In this document: positions 3,676 through 44,330 of the stretch, piece after piece
Layout: each line of letters begins with the position of its first letter
Position numbering within the stretch: position 1 is the stretch's first letter
Assembly: GCA_013265495.1 (NCBI GenBank)
Contig: MU057403.1
Coordinates: 1 to 64,000, forward strand
Direction of reading: 5' to 3'
DNA: 64,000 bases
DNA from: Vicugna vicugna
Taxonomy: Eukaryota
Translations under genes and position numbers: made by a program
The notes under the pieces: model-generated
Told to the model about the DNA's origin: nothing
The model's input: only the letters and a program-made list of their open reading frames with translations
The model's database searches: none

Positions 3676-4302
3676 NNNNNNNNNNNNNNNNNNNNNNNNN
3701 NNNNNNNNNNNNNNNNNNNNNNNNNNNNNNNNNNNNNNNNNNNNNNNNNNNNNNNNNNNNNNNNNNNNNNNNNNNNNNNNNNNNNNNNNNNNNNNNNNNN
3801 NNNNNNNNNNNNNNNNNNNNNNNNNNNNNNNNNNNNNNNNNNNNNNNNNNNNNNNNNNNNNNNNNNNNNNNNNNNNNNNNNNNNNNNNNNNNNNNNNNNN
3901 NNNNNNNNNNNNNNNNNNNNNNNNNNNNNNNNNNNNNNNNNNNNNNNNNNNNNNNNNNNNNNNNNNNNNNNNNNNNNNNNNNNNNNNNNNNNNNNNNNNN
4001 NNNNNNNNNNNNNNNNNNNNNNNNNNNNNNNNNNNNNNNNNNNNNNNNNNNNNNNNNNNNNNNNNNNNNNNNNNNNNNNNNNNNNNNNNNNNNNNNNNNN
4101 NNNNNNNNNNNNNNNNNNNNNNNNNNNNNNNNNNNNNNNNNNNNNNNNNNNNNNNNNNNNNNNNNNNNNNNNNNNNNNNNNNNNNNNNNNNNNNNNNNNN
4201 NNNNNNNNNNNNNNNNNNNNNNNNNNNNNNNNNNNNNNNNNNNNNNNNNNNNNNNNNNNNNNNNNNNNNNNNNNNNNNNNNNNNNNNNNNNNNNNNNNNN
4301 NN
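3676..4302. other. Assembly gap (627 N)
   Basis: Run of N. Confidence 1.
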
Positions 4303-26240: not shown

Positions 26241-28830
26241 ATTAGGGAATAAAAGACTGAAAGAACAAACGAAGTGGTAAATTTTAGAGGAGGTAGGAGA
26301 ACTTAAAACCCAAGATTTCAAAGCGGATGATGTACGTGTAAGTGACACATAGGATGTAGAGACACAAAGGGCACCTGAAGAGTGTGGGAAATGGATGCAG
26401 ACTTCTGAGTCCACTTCTAAGGTGGGAGCTGGGGAGGAGTGGGGCTACCACGGGTAGGGAGGCAGTGGAAATAAGAAAGAAGCTGGGATCATTCATCTCC
26501 GCCATCGCTAACTGGATATGCAAACTGGAAACAACAGGGTGGGGTAATCCTGAGAGAACGCTGGGAATAGTGTCAGAAACAGGGAAGGGAAACACTCCCA
26601 GGAAATGCCCCGCTTCTCTTGAATTACGCACCTCGGAGCTCTTGGATTTATCTAAACTGTCAAGGGAAGTGACTTGACTGGTTTCTCATAGGCGCTGTGG
26701 TGAGATTCACTGCAGTTCGAGTCCAGAATCATCAATGCAACGGAGGAGCGAGGAGCTGGTCAAGACCTTCCAGCTGTGGATGCAGTGAAGGCAGAGAAGG
26801 GAATGGCTCCGGATCAGAGAGGGGCACTAAACAGAGCCCCCTGCAGACTCCTGCTCATTGCCTGTTGCCATCCCCACAGCAAGGACCACCTGAGCATCAT
26901 TTATAGGCTCAGCCCTATCTCAGCCTCAGGAGCTTGTTAGGAGGTAGCTAGAGAAAAATAGCCCAAAACCTATTGAGCAAATTATCCAGCCCTACCGTCA
27001 CCTGCTACCTTTAAGAACCTCAGCTTTGCCTTATTTCTGGCATTAAGCTCTTGCTTCCTGGCTGCCTCCAATTAGCAGGTCCCCATATCTGCCCTCCCCG
27101 CCTGAGTGCCACTGTTTAACCTTCCGGGTTGCAGCAGGATGGGATCTTGATTCGCTGTGATTAGTGGTCCCAGGATAGTGCCCCCTGCTGGGACTTTGGG
27201 ACCTTTTTCCTGATTCCCCGAAGTCCAGCTTGGAAGTTCCTTATTTCCCCTCTCCGATTCCCTGTGGCTAGAGACTGAGTCCCTCCAAATAGGGCCCAGT
27301 GAGGTATCAGGTATTGCCTGCAGGAATTCTCAAACACCATGGCTAGTCTCAGCTGTTCTCAGTACTTCCCAGCCACAGCCACAAAGGCTCCTAAGTCAAC
27401 TTCCCCCTGGGTCTCAGCCTGTTCCATTTGCCTCCAAGGCTTGCTCTACCCTCACATTCATACCTAAGTCAGCCACCAGCGGGGTTCCTATTCCTGTCCC
27501 AGGGTGAGACAGCCACAAGGAGGGGCAAGGAAAAGCCATGGAGGCAGCCTCGAAGGCAGGCAGAGCTGGCAGGCAGATTCCAAGGATGAAGAAGGACTAA
27601 TAAGGGAACAAAGCACTTGGCTGAACATGGAGGTGCCACTTCCCTCCCCTGATCTGGGTCACAGCTGTCACTCTTCATGCCCAGCCCGCCTGCTTCCTCA
27701 AGGAGCCTGAAATCAACCTTCCTTAAACATGGTTATGTTTGAAATCCAAACCAACCTCCGGGGGAATGAGTTTCATATGGTAACTAACCCGCAGTACAAA
27801 GAAGGAGCTTATTTACCCTTGATTGATATTTACAAGAATTTAACCTGCATTTGGGACCATTCTCATCTGATGCAGTATCTCCCGACATATTTATGCTAAC
27901 ACAAGAAGATGTAGTCCACTCCATGGGAGGGAGGGAAGCAGGGACTGATTAAATCAGTCCTTCCTCCAGCTTCCATTCTTGGCCTTTTGGTGCGGCCTGA
28001 GTTTGAAATTTCTACCCCGTGTCAGTATAATGTAATTACAGTGTATTTACTCTGCCTTGACCTAGAAAGAATTTAAAGGGGCCCACCAGGTAACATGAAA
28101 TACAAGATGACAGCAGCTTAAGATGAGACTGAAACAAGCCGCCATGTATAGTTTTGCATGTTGGGCACTGTGCAACTCTAGACAGCATCACTTGCTTCTA
28201 TAATCATAACAGATTTATGTATTTATTACAACACTTTTCCAGCAATTATTCTGAGAAAAGAAGGCTCTGGGCGTGTGGTAGGACAGCATGTGTTCCTCTT
28301 CCTCGGTGTCCAGCCTACCCTTTGTGGGGCCATCTCTAGTAATAAAATGAAGTCCTACAACTCTGAGCTGACTCTGAGCTGTCTCTGAGCATAGCTTCTC
28401 CCCATGTCCTGCCTTTATGCTGTCTTTTTCTCTCTTTCTGAAGACTCTAACCCCTCTAAATAATAATTATAATAATGTTTATTACATTTTTTAATGCCAA
28501 GGCACTGTGTGAAGCAGCCTCTCCTATATTTTCGCATGCAATTTCAGCTGAATGTAAGGAACTTCTTGCTGCATATTTCAGGGTCGCACAGCTAGTCGGT
28601 GCCACCAGAAATCCAGGCTTGTGCACGTCAAGTTGGTGCTTCTACTGCCAAACAATCTTCTGTTGCGACGCGATCCCATGTTTTATTTGTGAGTCCAAGC
28701 TTCTTTTTAACAATGAAACATTGGGTTACACAAAGGAGTCAGCAAGAGTTCATCATAAAGAAGAAAATCAGCTATGTTTTGATTTTTGCCTTCTCCCCAA
28801 AGCCCCTTCAACTCAGAAGTTCCCAGAAAA

Positions 28831-29290
28831 GGGGGGAAGGTATAGCTCAGTGGTAGAGTGCATGCCTAGAATGCATGAGGTCCTGGGTTCGATCCCCAAT
28901 AACTCCATCAAAAATAAATAAGTAAACCTAAATACCTCCCCCCACAAACAAACAAACAAACAAACAAACAAAACCACACAAAGACAAATGAACTTAAATA
29001 TAAACTGAAACAGACTCACAGACATAGAATACAAACTTGGGGTTGTGGTTGTTGGTGGGGGAGGGTGGGAAGGGACAGACTGGGAGTTCAAGATTTGTAG
29101 ATACTGACAGGTATATATAGAATAGATAAACAAGTTTATACTGTATAGCATGGGGAAATATATATGGTGAAAGAGAATATGAAAATGAATATATGTATAT
29201 TCATGTATGACTGAAAAATTGTGCTGTACACCAGAAATTGACACATTGTAAACTGACTATAACTCAATTATAAACAAATAAATAAATAAA
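28831..29290 (+). mobile_element. Vic-1-like SINE head fused to an L1 3' UTR, within one TSD pair
   Basis: A box TAGCTCAGTGG and B box GGTTCGATCCC, then L1 3' UTR to a (TAAA)n tail; TTCCCAGAAAA on both sides. Confidence 0.85.
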
Positions 29291-31289
29291 TTCCCAGAAA
29301 AAAAAAAAGAAGAAAGTAGAACTTTCAAACAAATAGAATCTCAGACCCTCTTCCCCTGTGATACTTAATAGGATTACCCACCAGGCATTTGAAAATAAAT
29401 GCTACTCATTCTTAAAACTGTTTTCTCAGGGGAAAAGCAGAATGTTCCATGGAAAAGGCAGCATCCGCAGAGCAATCTTACCCATCTTCTGATTCTGGGA
29501 CATCGCTGTATTTGCAACAGTTAGAAAATGTAAGCTGTTTTAAAATCAAAAGTTTAGGTTGTCTTTGATTTGTAAACAGTTTTTTAAAAACACACATTTT
29601 ATGTGCAACTTTCAAATAATATTTTCTTCTCCTTATGAAAGCCATATATGACCACTAATTTAAAAAAAAAGCCATATATGACCACTAAATTAAAAGAATT
29701 AAAAAAAAAAGGGTGATCTCTCCACTAGAAATAACAGATATTAATATGTTATCTTTTTATTTCTCTCTCTTTATTCTTTTAATATAATTTAGAAGATATT
29801 ATGTGCATGCTTTGAAGTACATTGTTTTTACTCATTATAGTGTGTCAGTCCTGCTAGAAATGGATCTATTTTATTAGCTATTTCAAAAATTCTCCTTTTA
29901 GTTAGGGCTTTGAGCATCCTCATTATAGATTGCTTTCTATGTCATTAATTTCCTCCCTTCTTTTCCCTTATCTTTTCCTTGGCTTTTTCTGTGGGAACAA
30001 AGCTTTTGAGTTGTAGACTTTGCTAGACGTCTACCTGATACCCATTCCTCCTGGTCTCATTTATTCAGGGTAACAAAGTGTCCAGCTAAAAACCATCGCT
30101 TTCCTGGGCTCATTAGAAGAAGACACGTGACGCAGTTCTGAGATGTGAGTGGCAGTCTGCTGGGGGCATCAAGGAGGGCTTCCCACCTGGGACACATGTG
30201 GCCCTGGGTGAGGTAAAGAGCAGAACAAGAGCCTCGGCTCAAGTTGAAGCAGGAAGACAGAAGAAGGGGAGCCTGGGCCCGAGACATGTCATCCAAGAGT
30301 TCTGATTGCCCATTCTTGGCGTGTTGGTGGAATGAAACCAAGAACCCCCATCTGTGAAATCCATTTTTCAAGTTCTTTGTTGATTTGCACCAAATGCAGA
30401 CACTGGTACCCCTAGAGACAACAATGAGATGGCTTGTCATCTTTTTCTGTCTCTTGAAGCGACCTTTTCAGACAGGGAAAAAGCTCATGGAAATGGAAAG
30501 CTAGAATTAGGAGGCCCGGTGACCATTTAATTTCCCAGTCACTCCCTGAGTCACTCTGGGTGAATCACTGCGTAAACAGGTGTGTGAGTCATCTATATCT
30601 GCATAACCCATTAACACAAGTCAGGCTGTGGACAAGACATGTTTATTCTCCCACAGTTTCTGTGGGTCAGGAGTCCAAGCATGGCTCACATGGGCTTCTG
30701 CTCCAGGGTCTCATCAGGTTACCATCCAGGTGTCATCCAGCGCAGGGGTTTCTTTTGATGACTGGGCGGCAGAAGGGCCCCATTTTAAGTTCATGAGGTC
30801 CTTGGCATCTAATAAATTCAAATCCCACAGGGTGACAGGGTAGCATCCCATATTTGACTGATCAGAAGCGAATCATAGGTCCTACCCACACTCAAAGGGA
30901 GGGGATATCATAAGGGTATGTGGATGATTGAGGACCATAAGGTACAAGAGTGAGAAATGATGTGGGTAAATATGACAGTTAACATTCCAAAGGCTGTGGT
31001 TTTCATCCACATTCTTTTCAGAGGCAGTAGAGAAGATGGAGCTTCTTACAGCATTTTTCTTCATCTCCTAGTAACTCTCTCTGGTTTTAAAGTCCTCCTG
31101 GAGTTAGCTACAGATATTACCCATCAAAAGATATATTTAACATTTAATATTTATTCAGAATCTTGCATATCAGTCTACACTATTGGGAATTTTTGAAAAA
31201 TTTAATTCTCATTCATCTGACCCTAAAATTGAGAACTTACCCTTTGTAATTTGAGATTGAAGGGTATTTGATAAAGTAGATAACCATCA

Positions 31290-31563
31290 AACATATTTTT
31301 TACTCCACACACCAGCATCTTTGTTGAGTAGCTCACTACTCAACAAGGATGCTGACAGCCATAGACGTTCCACACAGTTTTGGCTCACTTGTAAATATAA
31401 ATGGACAGCCAGAGTTACCTGACATTGGAGGAAAACACCTAACCCATAATACAGAGAAAAAAAAAATATAAAGGAGAAGAGGGTAGCACAATCCTGAGAA
31501 TCAGAGGAAGCTGCAAAAATTACTATAAATAATATACTCAGAGAAATAAAAAAGTATTGCATC
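31290..31563 (+). mobile_element. Ancient L1 (L1ME-like) 5'/ORF1 region, left half of an interrupted element
   Basis: Appears to continue at 42872 across the TSD AAAAAGTATTGCATC. Confidence 0.55.
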
Positions 31564-31800
31564 AATGGAATACTATGCAGCCATAAAAAATAATAAAATA
31601 ATGCCATTTGCAGCAACATGGATGGACCTGGAGATTGTCATTCTAACTGAAATAAGCCAGAAAGAGAAAGAACAATACCATATGATGTCACTTCTATATG
31701 GAATTTTTACAAAAGACAAACAAACTTAGTTACAAAACAGAAACAGACTCAAAGACATAGAAAACAAACTTACGGTTACCAGGGGGGAAAGGGGGTGGGG
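31564..31800 (+). mobile_element. 5'-truncated L1 3' end, left part
   Basis: 'aatggaatactatgcagccataaaaaa...gcagcaacatggatggacctggag...aaacagactc' is canonical L1 3' sequence. Confidence 0.9.
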
Positions 31801-32435
31801 TGGCTCAGGTCTAAGGCGGGTGCTGTGACAGACCCTACCCTGTAGTCAAGAAAGACATACCCCCTCAACTAGCTTAGGGAAAGGGGCACTTATTTGCCTC
31901 CCTTACTTGGGAGAAACAGAAGCGGAGCGGCCTTGAGCAAGGTGGGCTCTAAGGACTCAGGAGCGTGGTCAGGGCCAGCCTCTCCCGCTTCACCTGGGGT
32001 GCCAGTGGGTGGACTCATGGAGACAGGCCTCTTCCATGTGTGGCGGAAAGATGCACAGATCACGTCCAGATAACAGCCGCAGAACTGAGGACAGACTACC
32101 AGGCACATTGCAAATACCAGGTCACATGCCCACCCTCGGGCAGATCGTGGTGTCTAAAAGGAGGGTATTAGGACCAACCAGCCAGGGTCAAGTCTGGGTG
32201 GGATACTGCACAGGGCTGGAGCACGTGGAAGGAGGGAAAGATTGTGAGGAGGAGGAGAAGGTGTGAGCCGAAGGGCTGGGTGGACAGAACACGTGTTTCC
32301 CCCACTCCCCACCCCTGATGCCTTGCCCTGTGAGGAACCTGCTCATCCTGGAGCTGGAGCAAGTCAAACCATTTTTCCCCTTCTCCTCCTTGGAAGACAT
32401 TTGTCTTATGCAAGGAGATGCTGGGGGTGCTCTGT

Positions 32436-32903
32436 TGTAACTGAGAAAGACCCTGTGGAGGCTTCCAGGGTCAGACCCTCCCCCATATCTTCTGCTGCAG
32501 CCCCTCTGAAGCACCCAGATCATAGTATCTCATGTGAATTTCCTGAAATTTTCAGATGCTAAAAACAACCACCAAAGGGAAGAAATGAAGTACTTGATGA
32601 TGAAGAGCACGTGGCTCCCAGACCTGCTGGCTTCTGGAGGGTGATGGTGTTGACGCCCTGTTCCCTCCACGTCAACCAGTCAGAAGACTGTGCACGAGCT
32701 GATCACACACCCTGCGACCCCCTGCCTCACCTGGCCTTTAACTACGCTTTGCTGAAAGCCTTTGGGGAGTTCAGGGTTTTCTTAGTCATGAGCCACCCCG
32801 TCCTCCTTGCTCAGCCCTGCAATCAGCCTTCTCTCGTCCAAACTGGGATGTGGTTTGTTTGGCTGCATGGTGCGCAGGGCACACGAACTTGCCTTCAGTA
32901 ACA
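32436..32903 (+). mobile_element. Solo ERV LTR (ERV1-like), 468 bp
   Basis: TGTAACTG...CAGTAACA termini; 4-bp TSD CTGT at 32432-32435 and 32904-32907; strand tentative. Confidence 0.75.
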
Positions 32904-34899
32904 CTGTTTTTAATCTTCAGTAAAGTTGATGCTCTTTTTTTATTCTCCATCAAAGGGGGAGCCTAATAATTTAGGAAAACCCTGAACCTATGGATTTGAG
33001 CTCTGATCTCACTCCCGCTCCCTGCCCCCACCCCTCTCCTTTTCTCCTCCTCTCTGTCCTCCTTTCCCTTCCTCTTCCCTCCCTTTCCTTCCCTCTCTGT
33101 CTCTCTCCACCCCCCACTCCCAGTAGATTTACTTAATTTCTTGGCTCACCAGCTGGATTCACATGTGAACAGATGTTTTGATCAATGACTTTGTCTAAGT
33201 GTTAAAAGTCACCAGTAGCAGGTTAAACCCAGCAGGCTAATAAAAAGCGTCCCCAAGCGCAAAGCGAAGGTGACAGTGTCCTTGATTTTTCTGCTTGTTT
33301 GTTATTACATTGTTTTCAGGTAGCTTTGTCTCTTGCAGCTGCAGGCTCTATTTTTCTTGATGTTTAAATGGAAAGGATTTCCTGCACCCACATTCAATCC
33401 CAGGTTTTAAGCCTTCAAATCCAATTACTTCCTGATTGGATTTGCATGCTTCTTCCTCAATCAGTAAATGAGCTGTTTCTTCTATGGGGCAAGTCCTTTG
33501 CTGAAAGTGACCTTTGTTGAAAGTGACCCTTCAGTTTTCTGTCCTTTCCCTGGGCATGCGTATCAAGGCTGAGTCTGCAGTAAAAGGCTTGTTTCAACCA
33601 TCTGTGGACACAAAGCCACTCCATGTTCCATGGACATCATGGGGCCATGACATGAGGTCCTGGCTGAGGCCGGCCCTGGCCAGTGCGTCCCAAGGCTGCA
33701 GTCTCCACAGGGGAGCCAGTGGGCACTCTTGAAGCATGAAAGACCCAGTTCAGGGCAGAGAAGAAGGAAGAGCGGATTTCTAGTCAGCAGTTAATAAATT
33801 CATGATGCCCACACCGTCTGGAAATATTAACCTGTATGTGGAGAGTCAGAGGTAGCAGACCTGTGGTGGGCCATCAGGGGTGCCTTCTGGTAGTTTTATT
33901 AAGATGCTCCATTAGAAATGATCCTAAAAGCATCAAATGCCAGACAGCGAACCATTCATCTGAGCGCCTTACAAGGGACACCTGCTCACCTGGGCAATCC
34001 CTCGTGTGTGGGACTGAAACCCTGTGTCACAGGATACTTAGCTTCCCAGTCTCCTCTGCCTTAAAGGCCAGAGCCCTCTCCCCACTCGTGGTGTCAAAGA
34101 TAACCCCACACATTCCCATAAACCCTCTATGATTCTCACTTTGGGGATAAGAAACCTAGGTTGAGAAAATTGAAGGCTTTTCTGAGAATGATAGCTTGAT
34201 GGTTTGAGCCCCATCTGATGCTCTTTCTATTAGTGTAAGGTGAGTCTGTGCAGCACGAGGGGCCCTGAGCTGGGTGGGGTGGGGGGCGTGAGAGCCCTGC
34301 ACTCGTCTCCTCCCACGGGTGGTGGTAGAAGGTTGCCTGCGTGCGCTCTCCCACCCTCACCTACAAACAACTACCTTTCTCTGGGTTTCAGCTGATGCCC
34401 TAGCCTCTTCAAAGCGGCCTTGAAATGCTGAGGTTCCTTGTATCAAACCACAGACTGGAGCATGGGGTTCGTTACTCTTGCTTATTTCATGGTTGGAGAA
34501 GTGGCCGAAATGTCCACAAAACACGCAGGGGACGTCAGCCTCAGCCCCTAATTTGAAAATACTTCAGGAAATGGTTAGATGAGCCCCAACAGACATTTTA
34601 CCTCAAATCAACTTCATTAGAGATTCTCTGGCAGGGCAAACCGTTGATAGGAGAGGGAAGATCAGAGCATGCAGAGCACATTGTGCATGATTTACAATAA
34701 AACCAGAGGTTTGGGACAATTTTTAATGAATCACTTTAAACCAAAGTCAATAGATAAAGAGTAGAGATCAAGGCTGATTTTTCACCTTTTAAACATGGGG
34801 GGGAAAATAAAAAATTAACATTCATCACAGGTCACACCAGGGCCAGTGATTTAGCACAACTTTCCCAAACTCTAATGGCTCAAGAAGGCAAAAGTCATG

Positions 34900-35520
34900 A
34901 GCAAACATGTGTAGAAAGCTTGAAATATCAGCTCTAGATAGGATTCAACACCTAACAAAGAGAAGACACACTCTTTTCAAGGAAGTGTGGAATCTATAAA
35001 AACTGACAATGTACCTCAATGAGTTCTACGGAAGCATCATTATATGTATATAATCATGCATATTAATGATGTATAGTATATTCTATTATTATATAAAAAA
35101 TTAGAAATCAATATTAAATATTTTTACAAATCCCATGTATCTGGAAACCAAAGAACATACTAATAAATATGCTTAGATTAAAAAGAAGGATGAAAGAGAG
35201 ATTACAAAATACTTAGCAGAGGACTAACAATGACACTGCATATCAAAACCTGGCAGCTTCAGGCCCAGACCGTTTCATAGGTAAGTTCTTCAGATTTTTG
35301 AGAAATAAATAATATGTTTCCATAATCTGACCCTAATCGCATATTAAGAAAAAATTATAACTAATTAAGCTTTATCTCAGGAAGGCAATAATGGCTCAAT
35401 GTCAAAAAATAATTTGTCAATGTAGTTTTTAACATCTCTAGAATAAAGGAGAACAACATTATCATTATCTTGATTTCTGCAGAAAACACTCAATAAAATC
35501 CAATACCTATACTTTAGTGA
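34900..35520 (+). mobile_element. Degraded L1 ORF2 fragments
   Basis: A-rich, L1-like motifs 'aaattagaaatcaat', 'catatcaaaacctgg', 'ctcaataaaatccaatacc'. Confidence 0.5.
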
Positions 35521-35524
35521 GCCT

Positions 35525-38500
35525 TCAGGACCACTGACCCAGGCCCAGGGAGTGCCCTGAGTGCCAGTCACCGAGGCCCAGGGTGAGTATCAGGGCCAGT
35601 GAACCAGACCCAGTGTTGCCATCAGTGCCTTGACCCAGGCCCAGGGTGTGCTTCAGCACCAATAACCCAGGACCATAGTGTGACCTCTGCACCAGTGACC
35701 CCAGATCAGGGTGTGGCTTGAAGGCCAATGACTAATGCCAAGTGTGTGACTTTACGGCCAAGGACCTAGGATACGTGTGTGCCTTCAGAGCCAGAGACCA
35801 AGGCCAAGGGTGTGCCTTTAGGGACAGTGAACCACGTCCAGGGTGTGCCTTCAACACCACTCACCCAGGTGGATGGTGTGTCTTCAAGGCCAGTGAACAA
35901 GGCCAATGTTGTGACTCTAGGGTAGTAACCCAGGCAAAGGTTGTGCCTTCAGGAACAGTGACCCAGGCCCGTGTCTGTCTTCAGTGTCTGTAACCCAGGA
36001 CCAGGGTGTGCTTTGACGGCTGCTGACCCAGGTCAAACATGTGCCTGCTGCGAGAGAGACCCAAGTTATGGGTGTGCTTTCTATGCCAGTGACCAAGCCC
36101 AAGGGTGGCAGTTTACAGATAGACACAGAGGCCCAGGGAGTGACTTCAGAGGCAGTGGTGCAGAGTATACATTTTGCGTAATTTAAACAGGCAAAGGGTG
36201 TCGATTTGGTGCCAGTGACCCAGGCCCAGGGTGTGCCTATGTACCAGTGACCTAGGTCCAGGGTGTGTCTTCAGGGCAAGTGCTCAAGCTAATGTTGTGA
36301 CTTCAGGGCCAGTGACCAAAGACCAGTGTGTGCCTTCAGGAACAGTGACCTAGGCCCGTGTCTGTCTTCGGTGCCAGGAACCAAGGAATAGGCTGTGCCT
36401 TCAGCACCATTGAACCAAGCCAAGGTTATACACTCAGGGTCAGTGACCCAGGCCCAGTGTGTGCTTTTAGGGCCAGTCACTCAGTCCCAGTGTGTGTTTA
36501 AAGGCCATTGACCCAAGCCCATGGGTGACCTTCAGACAACATACCCAGGCCCAGGGTGTGTCTTCAGGGCCATTGACCAAGGCCAACAGTGTGTCTTCAG
36601 CGTCAGTGACCCAGGTCAAGGGGGTACCTTCATGACCAGGGGACCAGGACGGGGGTATGCCCTCAGCCTCAGTGACACAAACACAGCGTGCTACTTCTAT
36701 GCCAGTGACCCAGGCCAAGTGTGTGTTCAGGGCCACTGACCCAAGCCAAGTGTGTGTCTTCAGGGCCACTGACCCAGTCCAAGTGTATGCGTGCAGCACC
36801 AGTGAAACAGTCCTTCGGTGTTCCTAGATTCTAGGAAAATGACTGTGGCCCTGGGACTGCTTTCATGTCAAGCTACACAGTCCCAGGGTGTGCCTTTAAG
36901 GGCAGTGACCCAGGTCCCCAGGATCTTCTCAAGGCCAGTGACCCAGGCCCAGGAGATGGCTTCTGCACCAGTGACCAAGGCCCAGGCTGTGTTTTTGTGG
37001 CCAGTGACCCAAGCCAAGAGTGTGTTTCTAGGGCCACTGACCAAAGCCAAGAATGCATCATCACGGCCACTGACCCAGGCCCAGGGTGTGTATCAGGGCC
37101 GGTGACCCAGGCCAAGAGTGCATCTTCACGGCCTGTGACCCAGGCCCAGGGGATGTCTTCTAAGACAGTGACCCAGGCCCAAGCGGTGTTTTTGGGACCA
37201 GTGACCCAAGCCATGTGTGTGTCTCTAGGGCCACTGACCAAATCCAAGTGTGCGTCTGTAGGGACAGTGACCAAGACCAAGAGTGAGTCTTCACGGCCAG
37301 TGACACAGGCCCAGGGTGTATATTAGAGCCAGTATACCGGGCCCGGGATATGCCCTCAGCTCCAGTGACATAAGCACAGCATGCTACTTCTGTGCCAGTC
37401 ACCCAGGCCAAGTGTCTTTTCAGGTCCACAGACCCAAGCCAAGTGTGTGCCTTCAGGGCCAGTGACCCAGTCGAAGTGTGTTTCTTCATGGTCACTGACC
37501 CAGGCCAAGGATATGCATGCAGTACCAGTGACACAGTCGCTCAGTATCCTAGATACTAGGAAAGTGACTGAGGCCCTGGGACTGCTATCATGTCAAGTTA
37601 TACTGTCCCAGGGAGGGTGTGCCTTCAGTGGCAGTGACCCAGGCCCCCAGGGTCTTCTCAAGGCCAGTGACCTAGGCCCTGGATATTGCTTCTGCGCCAG
37701 TGACCCAGGCCCAGGCTATTTTCCAGGCCAGTGACCCAACCCAGGAGTGTGTCTCTAGGGCCACTCACCAAAGCCAAGTGTGTGTCTTTAGGGCCAGTGA
37801 CCAAGGCCAAAAGGTCGTCTTCACAGCCAGTGACCCAGGCCCAGGGTGTGTGTCAGGGCCAGTGACCCAGGCCAAGAGTGCGTCTTCACAGCCAGAAACC
37901 CAGGCCCAGATTTGCAATTGGTGCCAGGGACCCAGGCCCGGTGTATGCCCTCATCCTCAGTGACACAAACACAGCGTGCTACTTCTATGCCAGTGACCCA
38001 GGCCAAGTGTGTGTTCAGGGCCACTGACCCAAGCCAAGTGTGTGTCTTCAGGGCCACTGACCCAAGCCAAGTGTGTGTCTTCAGGGCCACTGACCCAGTC
38101 TAAGTGTGTTTCTTCAGGGTCATTGACCCAGTCCAAGGGTATGCATGCAGCACCACTGAAACAGTCTGTCAGTGTTCCTAGATTCTAGGGAAGTGACTGA
38201 GGCCCTGGGACTGCTTTCAGGTCAAGTTACACAGTCCCAAGGGCAGTGACCCAGGTTCCCGGGATCTTCTCAATGCCAGTGACCCAGGCCCAGGGTGTGT
38301 TTTCAGGGCCAGTGACCCAAGCCAAGAGTGTGTTTCTAGGGCCACTGACCAAAGTGAAGTGTGAGTCTTTAAGGCCAGTGACCCAGGCCCCCTGGTTCTT
38401 CTCAAGGGTAGTGACCCAGGCCAAGGGGTTGGCTTCTGCTACAGTGACCCAGGCCCAGGCTGTGTTTTCGGGTCCCATGACCCAAGCCAAGAATGCATCT

Positions 38501-38745
38501 GTAGGGACACTGACCAAAGCCAAGTGTGTTTCTTTAGGGCCAGTTACTCAGGCCCATGGGTTCTTCTCAAGGCTAGTGACCCAGGCGCAGGCTGTATATT
38601 CGGGGCCAGTGACCGAAGCCAGGATTTTCTCTCTAGAGCCACTGATCCAAGCCAAGTGTGTGTCTTTAGGGCCGGTGATTATGGCCAAAAGTGCATCTTA
38701 ACGGCCAGTAACCCGGACCCAGTGTTGCCATCAGCGCCAGTGAAC
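35525..38745 (+). repeat. Satellite, ~33-bp unit CCAGTGACCCAGGCCCAGGGTGTGTCTTCAGGG (left arm)
   Basis: Many degenerate tandem units; recurring 11-aa PVTQAQ/ASDPGPG peptides in the ORF track. Confidence 0.95.
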
Positions 38746-39855
38746 CTCGCTACTCCCTCACCGCGTGGTCACACAACCTTAAAGTCGGGCATTGGGGTGT
38801 CCCAGCGCCAGGAGGACCTTAGGTGGCACCTGGGCGGGAGCTGGAAGGACAGCACTGGCTCGAGACCGACGTAGGAGGCCGGCAAGTAGCGCTAGAAAGC
38901 AGACACGACCATAGGACAAGCCGGGCCCCTGGCCATCCAGGCCCGGAGAGCGGATAAGTTTCTCACCAACTTCCCGACTCGGAGCCGGCGTTGGCTGGTG
39001 GGGGCGGCGCGTCCGGGCGCCGGGGCCTAGCGCTGCGGGACCGAGGCCGGGGCCGGCCGCTTCTGCCCTCGGGTTGCGTGGAGGGGGCTGCGAGCGGAGG
39101 CGAGGCCCGCGGGCCCTCTCCCTCCTCCACCTCCTATCCCCGGGCTCCCGGCCGCAAAAACGGCTGCACAGGCGGCCGCACACTAGCTTCTTCACCGGGA
39201 ATCAACTTCCAGGCTCTGCTCCTTCGCGAGGCGGGGCGCCGCGAGACTTCCGGTTTGCGGGTGGGCCGCTCGCGCGAGAGCAGGGCAAACCGGAAGTCGC
39301 GCGCGTGCCCCGCCCGCAAAGCGGAAATCCCGCGCGCGACCCGCTTGCAAACCGAAAGTGACGCGGCGCCCCGCCTGGCGAAGGAGCAGAACCGGGAAGT
39401 TCACTCCCGGTGAAGAAGCTAGTGCGCGGCTTCCTGTGCAGCCGTCTTTGCGGCCGGGAGCCCGGGGCTAGGAGGTGGAGGAGGGAGAGGGCCCGCGGGC
39501 CTCGCCTCCTCCCGCCGCCCCCTCCACGCAACCCGAGGGCAGAAGCGGCCGGCCTCGCAGCGCTAGGCGCGGCCGCCTGGACGCGCCCCCTCCCCCCCCC
39601 GCCACGCCGGCTCGGAGTCGGGAAGTTGGAGAGAAAATTTTCCTCTCTCCAGACCTGGCTTGCCAGGGACGAGTCTCGCTTGATGGTCTTGTCTGCTTTC
39701 TGGCGCTTCCTGTTGGCTGCCTGCGTCGTTCTCCGCACTATGCAGGCTTTCCATCCTACCGAGGTGCCAACTAAGGTCCTCCTCGCGCTGGGACACCCCG
39801 ACCAGCGACTTTAAGGTCGGGGGACAATCTGGTGAGCGGGCGGAGAGGTTCACTG
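38745..39855. promoter_or_regulatory. Inverted-duplicated CpG island, candidate bidirectional promoter
   Basis: High CpG density; the two halves are diverged reverse complements; ETS (CCGGAAGT) and GC-box motifs. Confidence 0.7.
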
Positions 39856-42794
39856 GCGCTGAAGGCAACCTTGGGTCTGGGACACTGGCCGTGGAGAGGC
39901 ACTCTTGGCCATGGTCACTGGCCCTAAAGACACACACTTGGCTTTGGTCTGTGGCCATAGAGAAACATTCCTGGCTTGTGTCACTGGCCCCGAAAACACA
40001 GCCTGGGCCTGGGCCTGGGTCACTGGCGCAGAAGCCATCCACAGGGCTTGAGCCACTGGCCTTGAGAAGACCCCGGGGGCCTGGGTCACTGGCCGTGAAG
40101 ACGCACTGTTAGCCTGGGTCACTGGCCCTAAAGACACACACCTGGCTTTGGTCAGTGGCCCTACGCATACACTCTAAGCTTAGGTCACTGGCCCCGAAAA
40201 CACAGCCTAGGCAGAAGCCATCCCATGGGCCTGGGACTCTGTCCCTGAAGGTACAACCTGGGACTGTGTAACGACATGAAAGCATTCCCAGGGCCTTGGT
40301 CACTTTCTAAGAATCTAGGAACAACAAGGGACTGTGAGACTGGTGCTGCACACATACCATTGGCCTCGGTCAGTGACCCTGAAGAAACACACACAGACTG
40401 GGTCGCTTGGCCTGAAGACACACACTTGGCTTGGGTCGTTGGCCCTGAACACACACTTGGCCTGGGTCACTGGCACTGATTGCAACCCTGGGCCTGGGTT
40501 ACTGGCCATGAAGACGCACTCTTTCCCTGGGTCACTGTCCGTGAAGGCGCACTTTAGCCTGGGTCAGTGGCCCTGATACATACTCTGGGCCTAGGTCACT
40601 GGCCATGAAGACGCACACTTAACTTGGGTCATTGGCCCTGAACACACACTTGGCCTGGGTCAGTGGCACAGAAGTAACATGCTGTATTTGTGTTACAGGG
40701 GCTGAGGGCATACCTGGAGCCTGGGTCACTGACACTGATTGCAAGTCTGGGCCTGTGTCACTGGCCATGAAGACGCACTCTTTGCCTGGGTCACTGTCCG
40801 TGAAGGTGCACTTTAGCCTGGGTCAGTGGCCCTGATACATACCCTGGTCCTGGGTCACTGGCCTTATACACACCCTGGGCCTGGGTCACTGGCCGTGAGA
40901 TGCACTCTTGGCCTGGGTCAGTGGCCCTAAACACACACTTGGCCTGGGTCTCTGGCACCAAAGAGACCTCCTGCGTCGGTCTCGAGCCAGTGCTGTCCTT
41001 CCACACGCTCTGCTTGTGTCACTCGGTTGAGGGCATACCCCGGGCCAGGGTCACTGGCACTGATTGCAAGCCTGGGCTTGGGACGCTGGCCATTAAGGGC
41101 ACTCTTGGTCTGGGTCACCGGCCTGATACATACCCTGTGCCTGGGCCACTGGCACTGATTTCAACCCTGGGCCTGGGTCACTGGCCATGAAGTCGCACTC
41201 TTGGCCTGGGTCAGTGGCCCTAAACACACATGGCCTTGGTCATTGGCATAGAAGGAACATGCTCTGCTTGTGTCACTGGGGCTGAGGGCATACCCTGGGC
41301 CAGGGTCACTGGCACTGATTGCAACCCTCGGCTTGGGACGCTGGCCGTTAAGGGCACTCTTGGTCTGGGTCACCGGCCTGATACATACCCTGTGCCTAGG
41401 TCACCTGCCGTGAATATGCACTCTTGGCCTGGGTCAGTGGCCCTAAACACACACTTGGCTTGGGTCTCTGGCACAAAATGAACACACTCTGCTTGTGTCA
41501 CTGGGTTGAGGGCATACCCAGGGCTTGGGTCATTGGCACTGATTGGAACCTTGGACCTGAGTCACTGACCATGAAGCAGCACTCTTGGCCTGTGTCACTG
41601 GCCGTGATACACATAGGGGCTGCCTCACTGGCAGTGAAGACGCACTTTTGGCCTTGGTCACTGGCCGTAAATAGGCAATTTCGCCTGGGACAGTCGCCCT
41701 GATACACACCCTGGGCCTGTATCACTGGCACTGATTGCCCCCTGGGCCTGGGTCACTGGCCATGAAGACGCACTCTTGGTCTGAGTCACTGGCCTTGATA
41801 CATATACTGGGCCTGGGTCACTGGCCCTGAAGACACACACTTGGCTTGGGTCAGTGTCCCTGAACACACACTTGGCCTGGGTCACTGGCACAACATTGTA
41901 AACTGACTGTATATATATGTATATATATGTGTATATATATATATACATATATATACATACACACACACACATACAGAAAAAGTATTGCATCTATGAACAC
42001 TAACAGATTGTGTTACAGTGGTTGAGGGCATACCCCGGGCCACGGTCACTGGCACTGATTGCAAGTCTGGGCCTGGGTCACTGGCCGTGAAGACTCACAC
42101 TTGGCCTGGGTCACTGGCCCTGATACACACACTGGGCCTGGGTCACTGGCCGTGAAGATGCACTCTTGGCCTGGGTCAGTGGCCCTAAACACACACTTGG
42201 CCTGGGTCACTGGCACAGAAGGTGCACGCTCTGCTTGTGTCACTGGGGCTGAGGGCATACCCCCGGACAGGGTCACTGGCGCTGATTGGAAACCTGGGTC
42301 TGGGATGCTGGCCTAGAAGAGCACTCTTGGTCTGGGTCACAGGCCCTGATACACACCCTGGGCCTGGGCCACTGGCACTGATTGCAACCTTAGGCCTGGG
42401 TCACTGGCCATGAAGTCGCACTCTTGGCCTGGGTCAGTGGCCCTAAGCACACACTTGGCCTAGGTGATTGGCACAGAAGGAACATGCTCTGCTTGTGTCA
42501 TGGGGGCTGAGGGCATACCCCGGGACAGGGCCACTGGCACTGATTGCATCCCTAGGCCTGGGTCACTGGCTGTGAAGACGTACTGTTGTCCTGGGTCACT
42601 GGCCCTGATACACACCCTGGGCCTGGTTCACTGGCCGTGAAGACGCACTCTTGGCCTGGGTCACTGGCCCTGATACACACATGGGCTGCGTCACTGGCCG
42701 TGAAGACGGACTGTTGGCCTTGGTCACTGGCCGTAAATAGGCACTTTGGCCTGGGAAAGTCGCCCTGATACACACCCTGGGCCTGGGTCACTGG
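39855..42794 (-). repeat. Same ~33-bp satellite in reverse orientation (right arm)
   Basis: Units read ...GGCCTGGGTCACTGG, the reverse complement of the left arm. Confidence 0.95.
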
Positions 42795-42856
42795 CACAAC
42801 ATTGTAAACTGACTGTATATATATATATATATATATACATACACACACACATACAG
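42795..42856 (+). mobile_element. L1 terminal sequence plus (TA)n(CA)n tail, right part of the split L1
   Basis: 'cacaacattgtaaactgact' matches the L1 terminus at ~29242-29258; followed by the TSD. Confidence 0.75.
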
Positions 42857-42871
42857 AAAAAGTATTGCATC

Positions 42872-44330
42872 TATGAACACTAACAGGATAATGTAAAAGA
42901 GAACATTCTGAAAACAAAACAGAGCTCTTCAGTATTAGGAATGAGGAGCAGCAGTAAGTTTACATTAGTAGGGTTAGTGGAGAAGTCTTCTAGACAGACA
43001 AAAACAATTGAGAGAGATGGAAATAAAGGGAAAAATACTAAAATGATCAATTAGAGGTCCGATATTCAAATAACAGTTTCAGACAGAGCGGAGAAAACTA
43101 AGGAGATGAAACTAAATAACACAAAAATATTCCCCAGAATTGAAGGACATAAGTTTTCGGGTTCAAAGTGCCACTAAATGCTACCAGTTTAAAATCACTG
43201 AGCACTGGAAATCAAGAAAAGATCTAAGTAATTTCCAGGGGGAAAGAACAGATCATATATAAAAGATGAAGAATTGGAATGGCAATGGGCTACTTGAAAG
43301 CAACTCTGGATAACAAAAGATTGTGGAAAATTTTCTTCAAAATTCTTAAGGAGGCCAATTCCTAAGAATAGATATCTCTGAGGAGAGAAAAAAAAGTGAG
43401 TCTAAGAAATGATCTTATGCATTCGAATTAAGATGAATTAATCATTGACTAAAATGAGATTTATACTTGTGGAGGGGCAGAGGGGTGTAGGAATAAAATT
43501 AGTGACAGATCCTTTAAAAATAAAGCAAATAAAAAGAGAGAAAAAAACTTAATGGAAAGTAAAAGCAAAAGTAGTATAAGGAAGAAAATGCCGCAGAAGT
43601 TTACTAAATGGCTCCTAGTAACGATCTAATAACACTATTATTGATTTAAACCCCAAATAGTGATATAAGTATATTGTGAGGGTGGAGGTAAAGGAGATCT
43701 TGAAGGCAGTGGTTGTTTAAAAAAAAGAAAGAAAGAAAGAAAGAGAGAAAGAGAGAGAACCAAACTAAATAGAATGCTTCTGGTTATATATTGTAGAGAA
43801 ATTGTTGCATATATTTCTCAAGGAAGCATATATACTTAAAGGCTATTCAGAACAGTGTTAACTGTTAGCATGAAAATTTAGAACCTTCCAATTGGCCATC
43901 AATAGAGCACCTGTTAAATAAATTACAGTATATCCTTTCAGTTAGACTGTTATACAGTCAGTACATCAATAAAGCCATTTTATATGTACTGATAAGAAAT
44001 AGTCTCTAGAAATAAGTCAAAAAATTAAGATCAATTTCTGCATTTATATAAAAAGAAAAGGGAAAGTATAGCTTGCTTTCTCTCTGTCTCATGTTTTTAT
44101 ACACACACACACACACACACACACACGTATATATGTGCTTACAGCGTATACACACTACTGTTAGAAGTTTTCTTATATATTCTTCCAGTAAAAGCCTATG
44201 CATATATAAATAAATGTGTGTATGTTTCTATCCGCATATATGTATGTATACTTATTTGTATTTGTATAGCTTATCTCTGAAAGAGTACACAAGAAACCTC
44301 TAATAGTAATTGAGAATGACTGGGGGCCAA
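42872..44330 (+). mobile_element. Ancient L1 (L1ME-like) ORF1 to 3' remnants
   Basis: ORF1-like 'aaaatattccccagaattgaaggacataagttttc...gaattggaatggcaatgggctacttgaaagcaactctgga'. Confidence 0.65.

Follow-up and report, generated by a model that had tools for sequence, protein, structure and literature searches.

A split LINE-1 and its target-site duplication

The 64,000-bp window analysed here (C84:1–64000 of the Vicugna vicugna genome assembly) contains a short 5′-truncated LINE-1 (L1) whose 3′ untranslated region (UTR) is interrupted by a 10,995-bp cassette. The cassette begins with non-coding DNA carrying a solo long terminal repeat (LTR) and continues as a large palindrome, in which inverted minisatellite arms surround a CpG island. 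As developed below, the structure appears to be an interspersed segmental duplication lodged in an older L1. All genome searches were run against the window's own assembly, which comprises 2.03 Gb in 12,405 contigs, and all coordinates without a contig name are those of the window.

The insertion is enclosed by the 15-mer AAAAAGTATTGCATC, found as exact copies at 31549–31563 and at 42857–42871 on the forward strand, a length within the range of approximately 7–20 bp typical of the target-site duplication (TSD) that encloses an L1 inserted by target-primed reverse transcription (TPRT). A third copy lies at 41977–41991, giving three matches against 0.02 expected by chance from shuffled sequence with at most one mismatch allowed. 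The left copy is preceded by ...AAATA, so that its start reads TA|AAAAAG, which may resemble an L1 endonuclease target. Immediately inside it lie the end of L1 open reading frame (ORF) 2 and the start of the 3′ UTR, up to the third G-run of a G-rich tract (31564–31799, forward strand). The translation of 31565–31726 aligns with residues 1228–1273 of human LINE-1 ORF2p (E 2e-9). A Pfam scan of the fragment's peptide returned only a sub-threshold match to DAAF9_N. A genome search with the fragment gave 5266 candidates at first look; identity to it is 86–91% in the 40 scored.

On the other side of the cassette, the 20-nt sequence CACAACATTGTAAACTGACT (42795–42814) is followed by a 42-nt TA/CA microsatellite tail, the two together filling 42795–42856 on the forward strand up to the right TSD copy. 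This 20-mer or a close variant ends all 11 intact relatives chosen as the fragment's best matches, several of them exactly, and the relatives L040–L042 also have TA/CA-rich tails. The insertion thus reaches the 3′ terminus of its element, as is characteristic of TPRT. Insertions of this kind usually also have an A-rich tail and an A-rich target; the tail here is a TA/CA microsatellite. The exact 15-mer, the ORF2p match and the terminal 20-mer bear out an earlier note on this DNA, which had described the repeat, the L1 fragment and the L1 terminus with its tail. That note had counted two TSD copies; the flanking pair stands, and the copy at 41977–41991, part of a doubled right joint, had been overlooked.

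The two L1 pieces are collinear, and between them approximately 190 bp of the 3′ UTR has been replaced by the 10,995 bp of the cassette (31800–42794), in agreement with the earlier note. The missing piece measures 187–194 bp by the five of the 11 relatives that match the end pattern exactly, and approximately 172 bp by an older L1 copy at 29.0–29.3 kb, which shows the same layout of left piece, gap and terminus.

The DNA outside the TSD copies had also been described as one continuous old L1. By eye, the flanks do look like old L1, and the 15-mer translates in one frame (KKYCI) at both ends of the insertion, which is the only support for their continuity. Genome searches with both flanks as DNA and as protein returned only self-matches, a tblastn comparison of the flank peptides with every fetched locus was uninformative, Pfam scans found no family for two right-flank peptides and matched none of 38 neighbouring ORFs, and PDB sequence searches with the flanks found no match to L1 ORF1p. 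The description is therefore not confirmed. Metagenome contigs were also scanned for the site with two exact window stretches adjoining the insertion, each of which had 0 matches. The neighbourhood 2 kb upstream (28830–29300) contains, in addition to the older L1 3′ end with its tail, a tRNA-like short interspersed element recognized by eye and an (ACAA)n run. The window includes one assembly gap, a run of Ns at 3676–4302; there is none within the region of the cassette and the L1.

Paralogs of the cassette and its two joints

The left part of the cassette consists of two segments on the forward strand. Segment A (31800–34529) is non-coding, with only short ORFs (70–116 amino acids) that overlap in several frames on both strands; segment B (34530–35516) is, by eye, a piece of an old L1 ORF2. 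An Rfam scan of 31000–43500 returned no families. The earlier note had called this part unique DNA and proposed a search for its donor and copy number. Such a search with 31801–35520 found two paralogs instead, one at C2223:180833–184583 that matches over the full length at 94% and one in C1628 that is split into two oppositely oriented pieces and matches at 91% (91–93% across the range). Over approximately 3,700 sites aligned in the three copies, segment A differs from C2223 and C1628 by 4.7% and 7.2% in substitutions and segment B by 3.7% and 7.1%. Segment B terminates at the identical base in all three copies and is inverted relative to segment A in C1628.

The solo LTR reported in the earlier note is real: it spans 32436–32903 on the forward strand, begins with TG and ends with CA, and is flanked by CTGT at 32432–32435 and 32904–32907. 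Dozens of copies at 81–84% identity are present in the genome (query positions 636–1103). The full-length alignments of both paralogs include the LTR, so it predates the duplications and was already present in the donor.

Homology to C2223 and C1628 begins at 31782, within the G-rich tract of the L1. From there to 40479 the window follows C2223 collinearly, in descending coordinates from 184603 to 175477, at approximately 95% identity over at least 8.7 kb. As C2223 is a different contig, this exceeds the customary definition of a segmental duplication, a match of at least 1 kb to a non-adjacent locus with an identity of 90% or higher. Substitution identity per 500 bp ranges from 85 to 99%, with 95–97% in the unique part and 85–94% towards the centre of the palindrome. 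At the boundary between unique and satellite DNA (35282–36281), identity rises to 98.6% against approximately 95% on either side, and later gene conversion between the paralogs may have acted there. The last 123 bp before the right joint are 92.7% identical to C2223:174500–174378, after which the sequences diverge. These end matches give a donor span of approximately 10.2 kb, to be compared with approximately 10.1 kb for the cassette without a local duplication of approximately 0.9 kb.

The direction of transfer follows from what lies beyond the left joint. Past the point at which the window becomes L1, homology between C2223 and C1628 persists for another 2.1 kb, so that the donor sequence runs through the joint and the window copy is the derived, truncated one. 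Judged by these alignments, with paralogs at 94–95% (C2223) and 91–93% (C1628) that both extend past the left joint, the cassette is foreign and arrived from another locus, as the earlier note had proposed. The C1628 copy (C1628:417290–423516) is itself rearranged, with one block inverted, a 136-bp filler and an inverted partial copy of approximately 200 bp at its edge. It is without any satellite, although segment B ends exactly where the satellite starts in the window and in C2223.

Both joints show short microhomology without long homology, the pattern expected of microhomology-mediated end joining (MMEJ) or microhomology-mediated break-induced replication (MMBIR), and the route of break repair suggested in the earlier note fits them. 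At the left joint, the L1 reads ...GGGGGTGGG|AAGGG and the donor, in C2223 and C1628, ...GGGGCTGGGGTGGCTCAGG; they share TGGG (31796–31799, forward strand) within a 19-nt tract matching at 15 of 19 positions. Over longer stretches, the L1 reads ...GGGGGGAAAGGGGGTGGG|AAGGG, the donor ...GGGGGGCACAGGGGCTGGGGTGGCTCAGG and the window ...GGGGGGAAAGGGGGTGGGGTGGCTCAGG. At the right joint, CAC (42795–42797, forward strand) is common to the donor (...CTGGCAC|TATTG, in a longer stretch ...GGGTCACTGGCAC|TATTG) and the L1 (...TTGACAC|AACATTG). The left break pairs an L1 3′ UTR G-quadruplex (G4) motif with a G-rich tract of the donor, and the right break falls in the 33-bp minisatellite. A canonical G4 motif occupies the break position in eight of the 11 intact L1 relatives and is also present at the C2223 breakpoint. 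Potential quadruplex sequences have been described specifically in the LINE-1 3′ UTR (the part of PMC4407331 used here), and tandem repeats and G4-prone sequence are reported to be enriched at human copy number variation (CNV) breakpoints (likewise the part used of PMC4090240).

We observed no L1 at the donor breakpoints, and non-allelic homologous recombination between L1s was rejected on this ground. Integration of circular DNA is not favoured either, as the cassette is collinear with the donor rather than permuted. Among the scored candidates, 40 of 4493 on the left side and 40 of 89 on the right, no second genomic site spanning either joint was found.

The assembly contains the right joint twice. 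An internal second copy of approximately 143 bp (41864–42006, forward strand), to be compared with 42770–42886, contains the end of the satellite, the L1 terminus (41889–41908), a tail, the third 15-mer and a flanking 15 bp. Starting at GGCCTGGG, microsatellite length is all that distinguishes the two copies, and two bases differ in the satellite stretch that precedes it. Further ahead of each copy, the satellite aligns at just 74–82% over long stretches, and a simple tandem duplication of the right joint was rejected for this reason. The doubling is at most suggestive of a replicative origin, perhaps with template switches.

Order of events and competing explanations

Divergence points to an L1 that was in place before the cassette arrived, as the earlier note had supposed. 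In the sites aligned across the three copies of segments A and B, private substitutions number 67 in the window (1.8%), 90 in C2223 and 192 in C1628, the last figure including the internal branch; pairwise divergence is 3.7–4.7% between the window and C2223 and 7.0–8.0% between either of them and C1628. The L1 fragment differs on average by 10.65% from the 11 relatives, which differ by 10.2% among themselves. A star-tree estimate over its 237 bp, made directly on these best-match relatives with no consensus built, places approximately 5.6% on the fragment's own branch. The contrast between approximately 5.6% and approximately 1.8% suggests that the L1 is the older of the two.

Taken together, these results are best explained by two separate events, to which we assign a probability of roughly 70%: an L1 insertion, and then a microhomology-mediated capture or copying of approximately 10 kb from a C2223-type locus. 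A 5′-truncated L1, originally of approximately 450 bp plus a tail, would have inserted by TPRT and generated the 15-bp TSD. Later, the element would have broken in its 3′ UTR, or a replication fork would have stalled there, with the loss of approximately 190 bp. The gap would then have been filled with a copy of the paralogous locus, either by capture of a fragment through MMEJ or by replicative template switching of the MMBIR or fork stalling and template switching (FoSTeS) type. The G-quadruplex tract of the L1 would have been joined through TGGG to the similar G-rich tract of the donor on the left, and a 33-bp minisatellite unit of the donor through CAC to the L1 end on the right, and a still later local event would have doubled the right joint. 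The component pieces, their paralogs, the microhomologies and the transfer direction are shown by the sequence. We infer the order of these events from divergence, and the repair pathway; end-joining capture and replicative template switching cannot be separated by sequence alone.

Several observations weigh against this account. The right half of the palindrome's centre is closer to C9795 (92–93%) than to C2223 (88%), so that the immediate donor may have been a locus other than C2223; the pattern reflects either faster evolution of the C2223 arm or exchange among family members (window 39303–39900 compared with C9795:33042–34267). The age of the L1 rests on 237 bp and 11 relatives picked as best matches, and if the source L1 lineage itself evolved, the distance to older copies would overestimate that age. 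Finally, a plain tandem duplication does not account for the doubled right joint, which may reflect a later local rearrangement or an assembly error.

The single TSD around the whole structure and the microhomology at both joints would also suit a one-step origin, in which, during L1 integration, the nascent cDNA or a break made by ORF2p switched to genomic DNA after 20 nt of L1 and the tail, copied approximately 10 kb and returned to the L1 RNA at the G-rich tract. Templated insertions coupled to L1 integration have been reported experimentally (in the part of PMC11702581 used here). We consider this course improbable, since two switches would be needed, off one RNA and back onto it approximately 190 nt away, with 10 kb of DNA copied through a palindrome in between. 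Moreover, the L1 fragment appears approximately three times more diverged than the cassette, and the 40 scored copies include none closer than 91%. A source L1 elsewhere that already carried the cassette in its 3′ UTR and was retrotransposed whole would leave a TSD, a 5′ truncation and a tail enclosing the composite, as seen here, yet an RNA of 11 kb containing a 3.5-kb hairpin would hardly serve as a template, the solo LTR and the CpG island would have had to be kept unspliced, and no other locus with L1–cassette joints appeared among those scored; this origin is scarcely credible.

The palindrome could itself be mobile, as a foldback or 'core duplicon' type of element that carried 3.7 kb of neighbouring DNA with it. 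Its centre recurs at eight other loci and its satellite at more, arm polarity is the same at all four fetched loci with both arms, a close subfamily links the window, C2223 and C9795, and the satellite contains three of the four breakpoints seen in the window and C9795 copies. On the other hand, six inspected elements show no TSDs or constant termini, flanks are common only to the group of the window, C2223 and C1628, and C1628 has segments A and B without satellite. The ORF listing, made with no Pfam scan, showed no transposase-like ORF but only short multi-frame ones, and the joints in the window resemble repair joints inside an L1. Such mobility is thus distinctly improbable as the cause of this insertion. 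Misplacement of the cassette, or of the doubled right joint alone, in contig C84 during assembly is very unlikely. Satellite, palindrome and microsatellite DNA are error-prone in assembly, and the right joint does occur twice with differing TA-repeat lengths. However, the cassette is a distinct paralog with its own 67 private substitutions rather than a misplaced C2223, its two ends adjoin matching halves of one L1 within one TSD, and the joints share 3–4 bp, too little for an overlap mis-join. In addition, 20 runs from 7 studies and 4 organisms hold 0.62–0.81 of the words of 30500–32500, against approximately 0.53–0.58 from the flank alone, which argues weakly in the same direction.

Interspersed segmental duplication, or 'duplicative transposition', is a familiar process for which MMEJ and FoSTeS/MMBIR are models. 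Insertion of a 10-kb copy into an existing L1, the account preferred here, resembles the microhomology-formed examples in having at least 10 kb at approximately 95% identity to a distant locus, a donor that continues past the joint, microhomology of 3–4 bp at each joint, a small deletion in the recipient and extra local complexity in the form of the doubled joint. It differs from typical segmental duplications in that both recipient breakpoints lie in one small L1 and one joint pairs two G-quadruplex-type tracts. The recipient break in an L1 3′ UTR G4 and the donor breaks in a G-rich tract and a 33-bp tandem repeat are like those described for CNV breakpoints, although what the parts of PMC4090240 and PMC4407331 used here present are human statistical enrichments and the present case is a single fixed or old camelid event. 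The L1-associated rearrangements in the part of PMC11702581 used here likewise place a TSD-bearing L1 beside foreign or rearranged DNA with microhomology at the joints; there, however, the foreign DNA sits at insertion junctions and arises during integration, whereas here an internal L1 segment was replaced, seemingly at a later time than the L1 insertion.

The evidence supports well the conclusion that an interspersed segmental duplication arose here through microhomology-mediated repair, an event of a known and ordinary kind that is unusually cleanly resolved. It would hardly surprise a specialist. Its value lies in being a natural case resolved to the base pair, with donor, recipient, both joints and relative timing obtained from one assembly, and in the exact placement of its breaks at an L1 3′ UTR G-quadruplex, a G-rich tract and a palindrome of minisatellite, which are all kinds of sequence suspected to stall replication. 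The palindrome family merits a separate look.

The palindrome and its dispersed family

The palindrome (35517–42794) reported in the earlier note is real. It has inverted arms of tandem repeats, as in foldback-type elements, around a CpG-island centre. The left arm (35517–38700, forward strand) is a degenerate minisatellite of period 33 with 80 copies and 63% matches, and its CpG observed/expected ratio (o/e) is 0.15. The centre (38701–39849), with its symmetry axis near 39302, carries a conserved GGTGAG at each outer edge, and its inverted-repeat arms are 90% complementary. The right arm (39850–42794, forward strand) consists of the 33-bp minisatellite in the opposite orientation and ends at the right joint. 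Composition changes sharply from centre to arms: the centre has a GC content of 0.72, a CpG o/e of 0.99 and 91 CpGs in 38950–39650, against o/e values of 0.15–0.24 in the arms. At the symmetry axis, a 31-bp unit of the GCAAACCGGAAGTCACGCGCGCGCCCCGCCC type is repeated three times (39285–39375), and we presume its resemblance to ETS and Sp1 sites.

The centre is found at eight other loci (C2223, C9795, C10318, C7359, C5257, two in C5059, and C3565) and the satellite at further loci in C1706, C5366 and C12293. Seven of the other loci were fetched, of which four have both arms in the same polarity, two have one arm and one has the centre only. All seven centres keep the composition of a CpG island, with o/e values of 0.57–0.91 over the whole centre and a maximum of 1.12 in its best 500-bp stretch, so that CpGs have been retained in the family despite 7–35% divergence. 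Twelve aligned half-centres share long conserved blocks, and GGTGAG stands at the satellite-side edge in 10 of them. Two arm types can be distinguished, with one arm of each type in the window and likewise in C2223. The right half-centre of the window is 92–93% identical to both arms of C9795 and 88% to C2223, and the three loci form a closely related subfamily. As for coding potential, the ORFs seen are all short and overlap in multiple frames of either strand, and a 2-bp indel between the arm types within an exon-like stretch argues against coding. A candidate reading by eye, that the C9795 palindrome lies inside an L1 ORF2 with a small deletion, was rejected, as neither flank matches ORF2p.

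The family itself is real, and the evidence does not establish it as a mobile 'core duplicon', a status the earlier note had raised for the cassette. What stands of that suggestion, weakly, is the dispersed family with its centre at eight other loci. Against it, the six elements inspected have no flanking direct repeats or constant termini and end at varying points in the satellite, and among the eight fetched loci homology of unique flanks is confined to the window, C2223 and C1628, the last of which is without satellite, rather than extending to varied co-duplicated flanks.

Primate core duplicons, such as LCR16a/NPIP, offer one point of comparison: here, too, a repeat core is present at many loci, and once with co-duplicated flanks. 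The likeness ends with the single flank-sharing group, one member of which has no core. Core duplicons also carry an expressed gene family in their core; the features of the palindrome that bear on this point are its CpG-island centre and the conserved GGTGAG. Foldback (FB) transposons of Drosophila, with long inverted arms of short tandem repeats around a central region, offer another. The palindrome shares the long inverted tandem-repeat arms around a centre, but its family shows no TSD, constant termini or transposase, and its centre is a CpG island.

A more speculative reading, which we hold to be rather unlikely, is that the core belongs to a camelid family, so far undescribed, of units arranged head to head, which would amount to a young counterpart of core duplicons outside primates. 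Each unit in this reading may consist of a germline-hypomethylated CpG-island promoter, a conserved non-coding first-exon-like stretch of approximately 0.5 kb ending in GGTGAG, and the 33-bp minisatellite. If true, the palindromes would be transcribed outward, break easily and repeatedly seed duplicative insertions, as in the window and C9795, sometimes together with neighbouring DNA. A limited check of the literature did not find the family described; the alpaca satellites reported in PMC13751797 have units of 1.8–8.5 kb, and the main text of that paper does not contain '33 bp', 'palindrom', 'inverted' or 'CpG'.

Whatever the status of the family, an island that looks hypomethylated by its CpG content was moved to a new site and has kept a CpG o/e near 1 there, which makes the locus a small natural test of whether CpG islands stay unmethylated by themselves. 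Near two of the family loci, a 2-kb stretch is 99.1% identical between C7359:261470–263494 and C5257:1490286–1492311, and is probably a young repeat copy.

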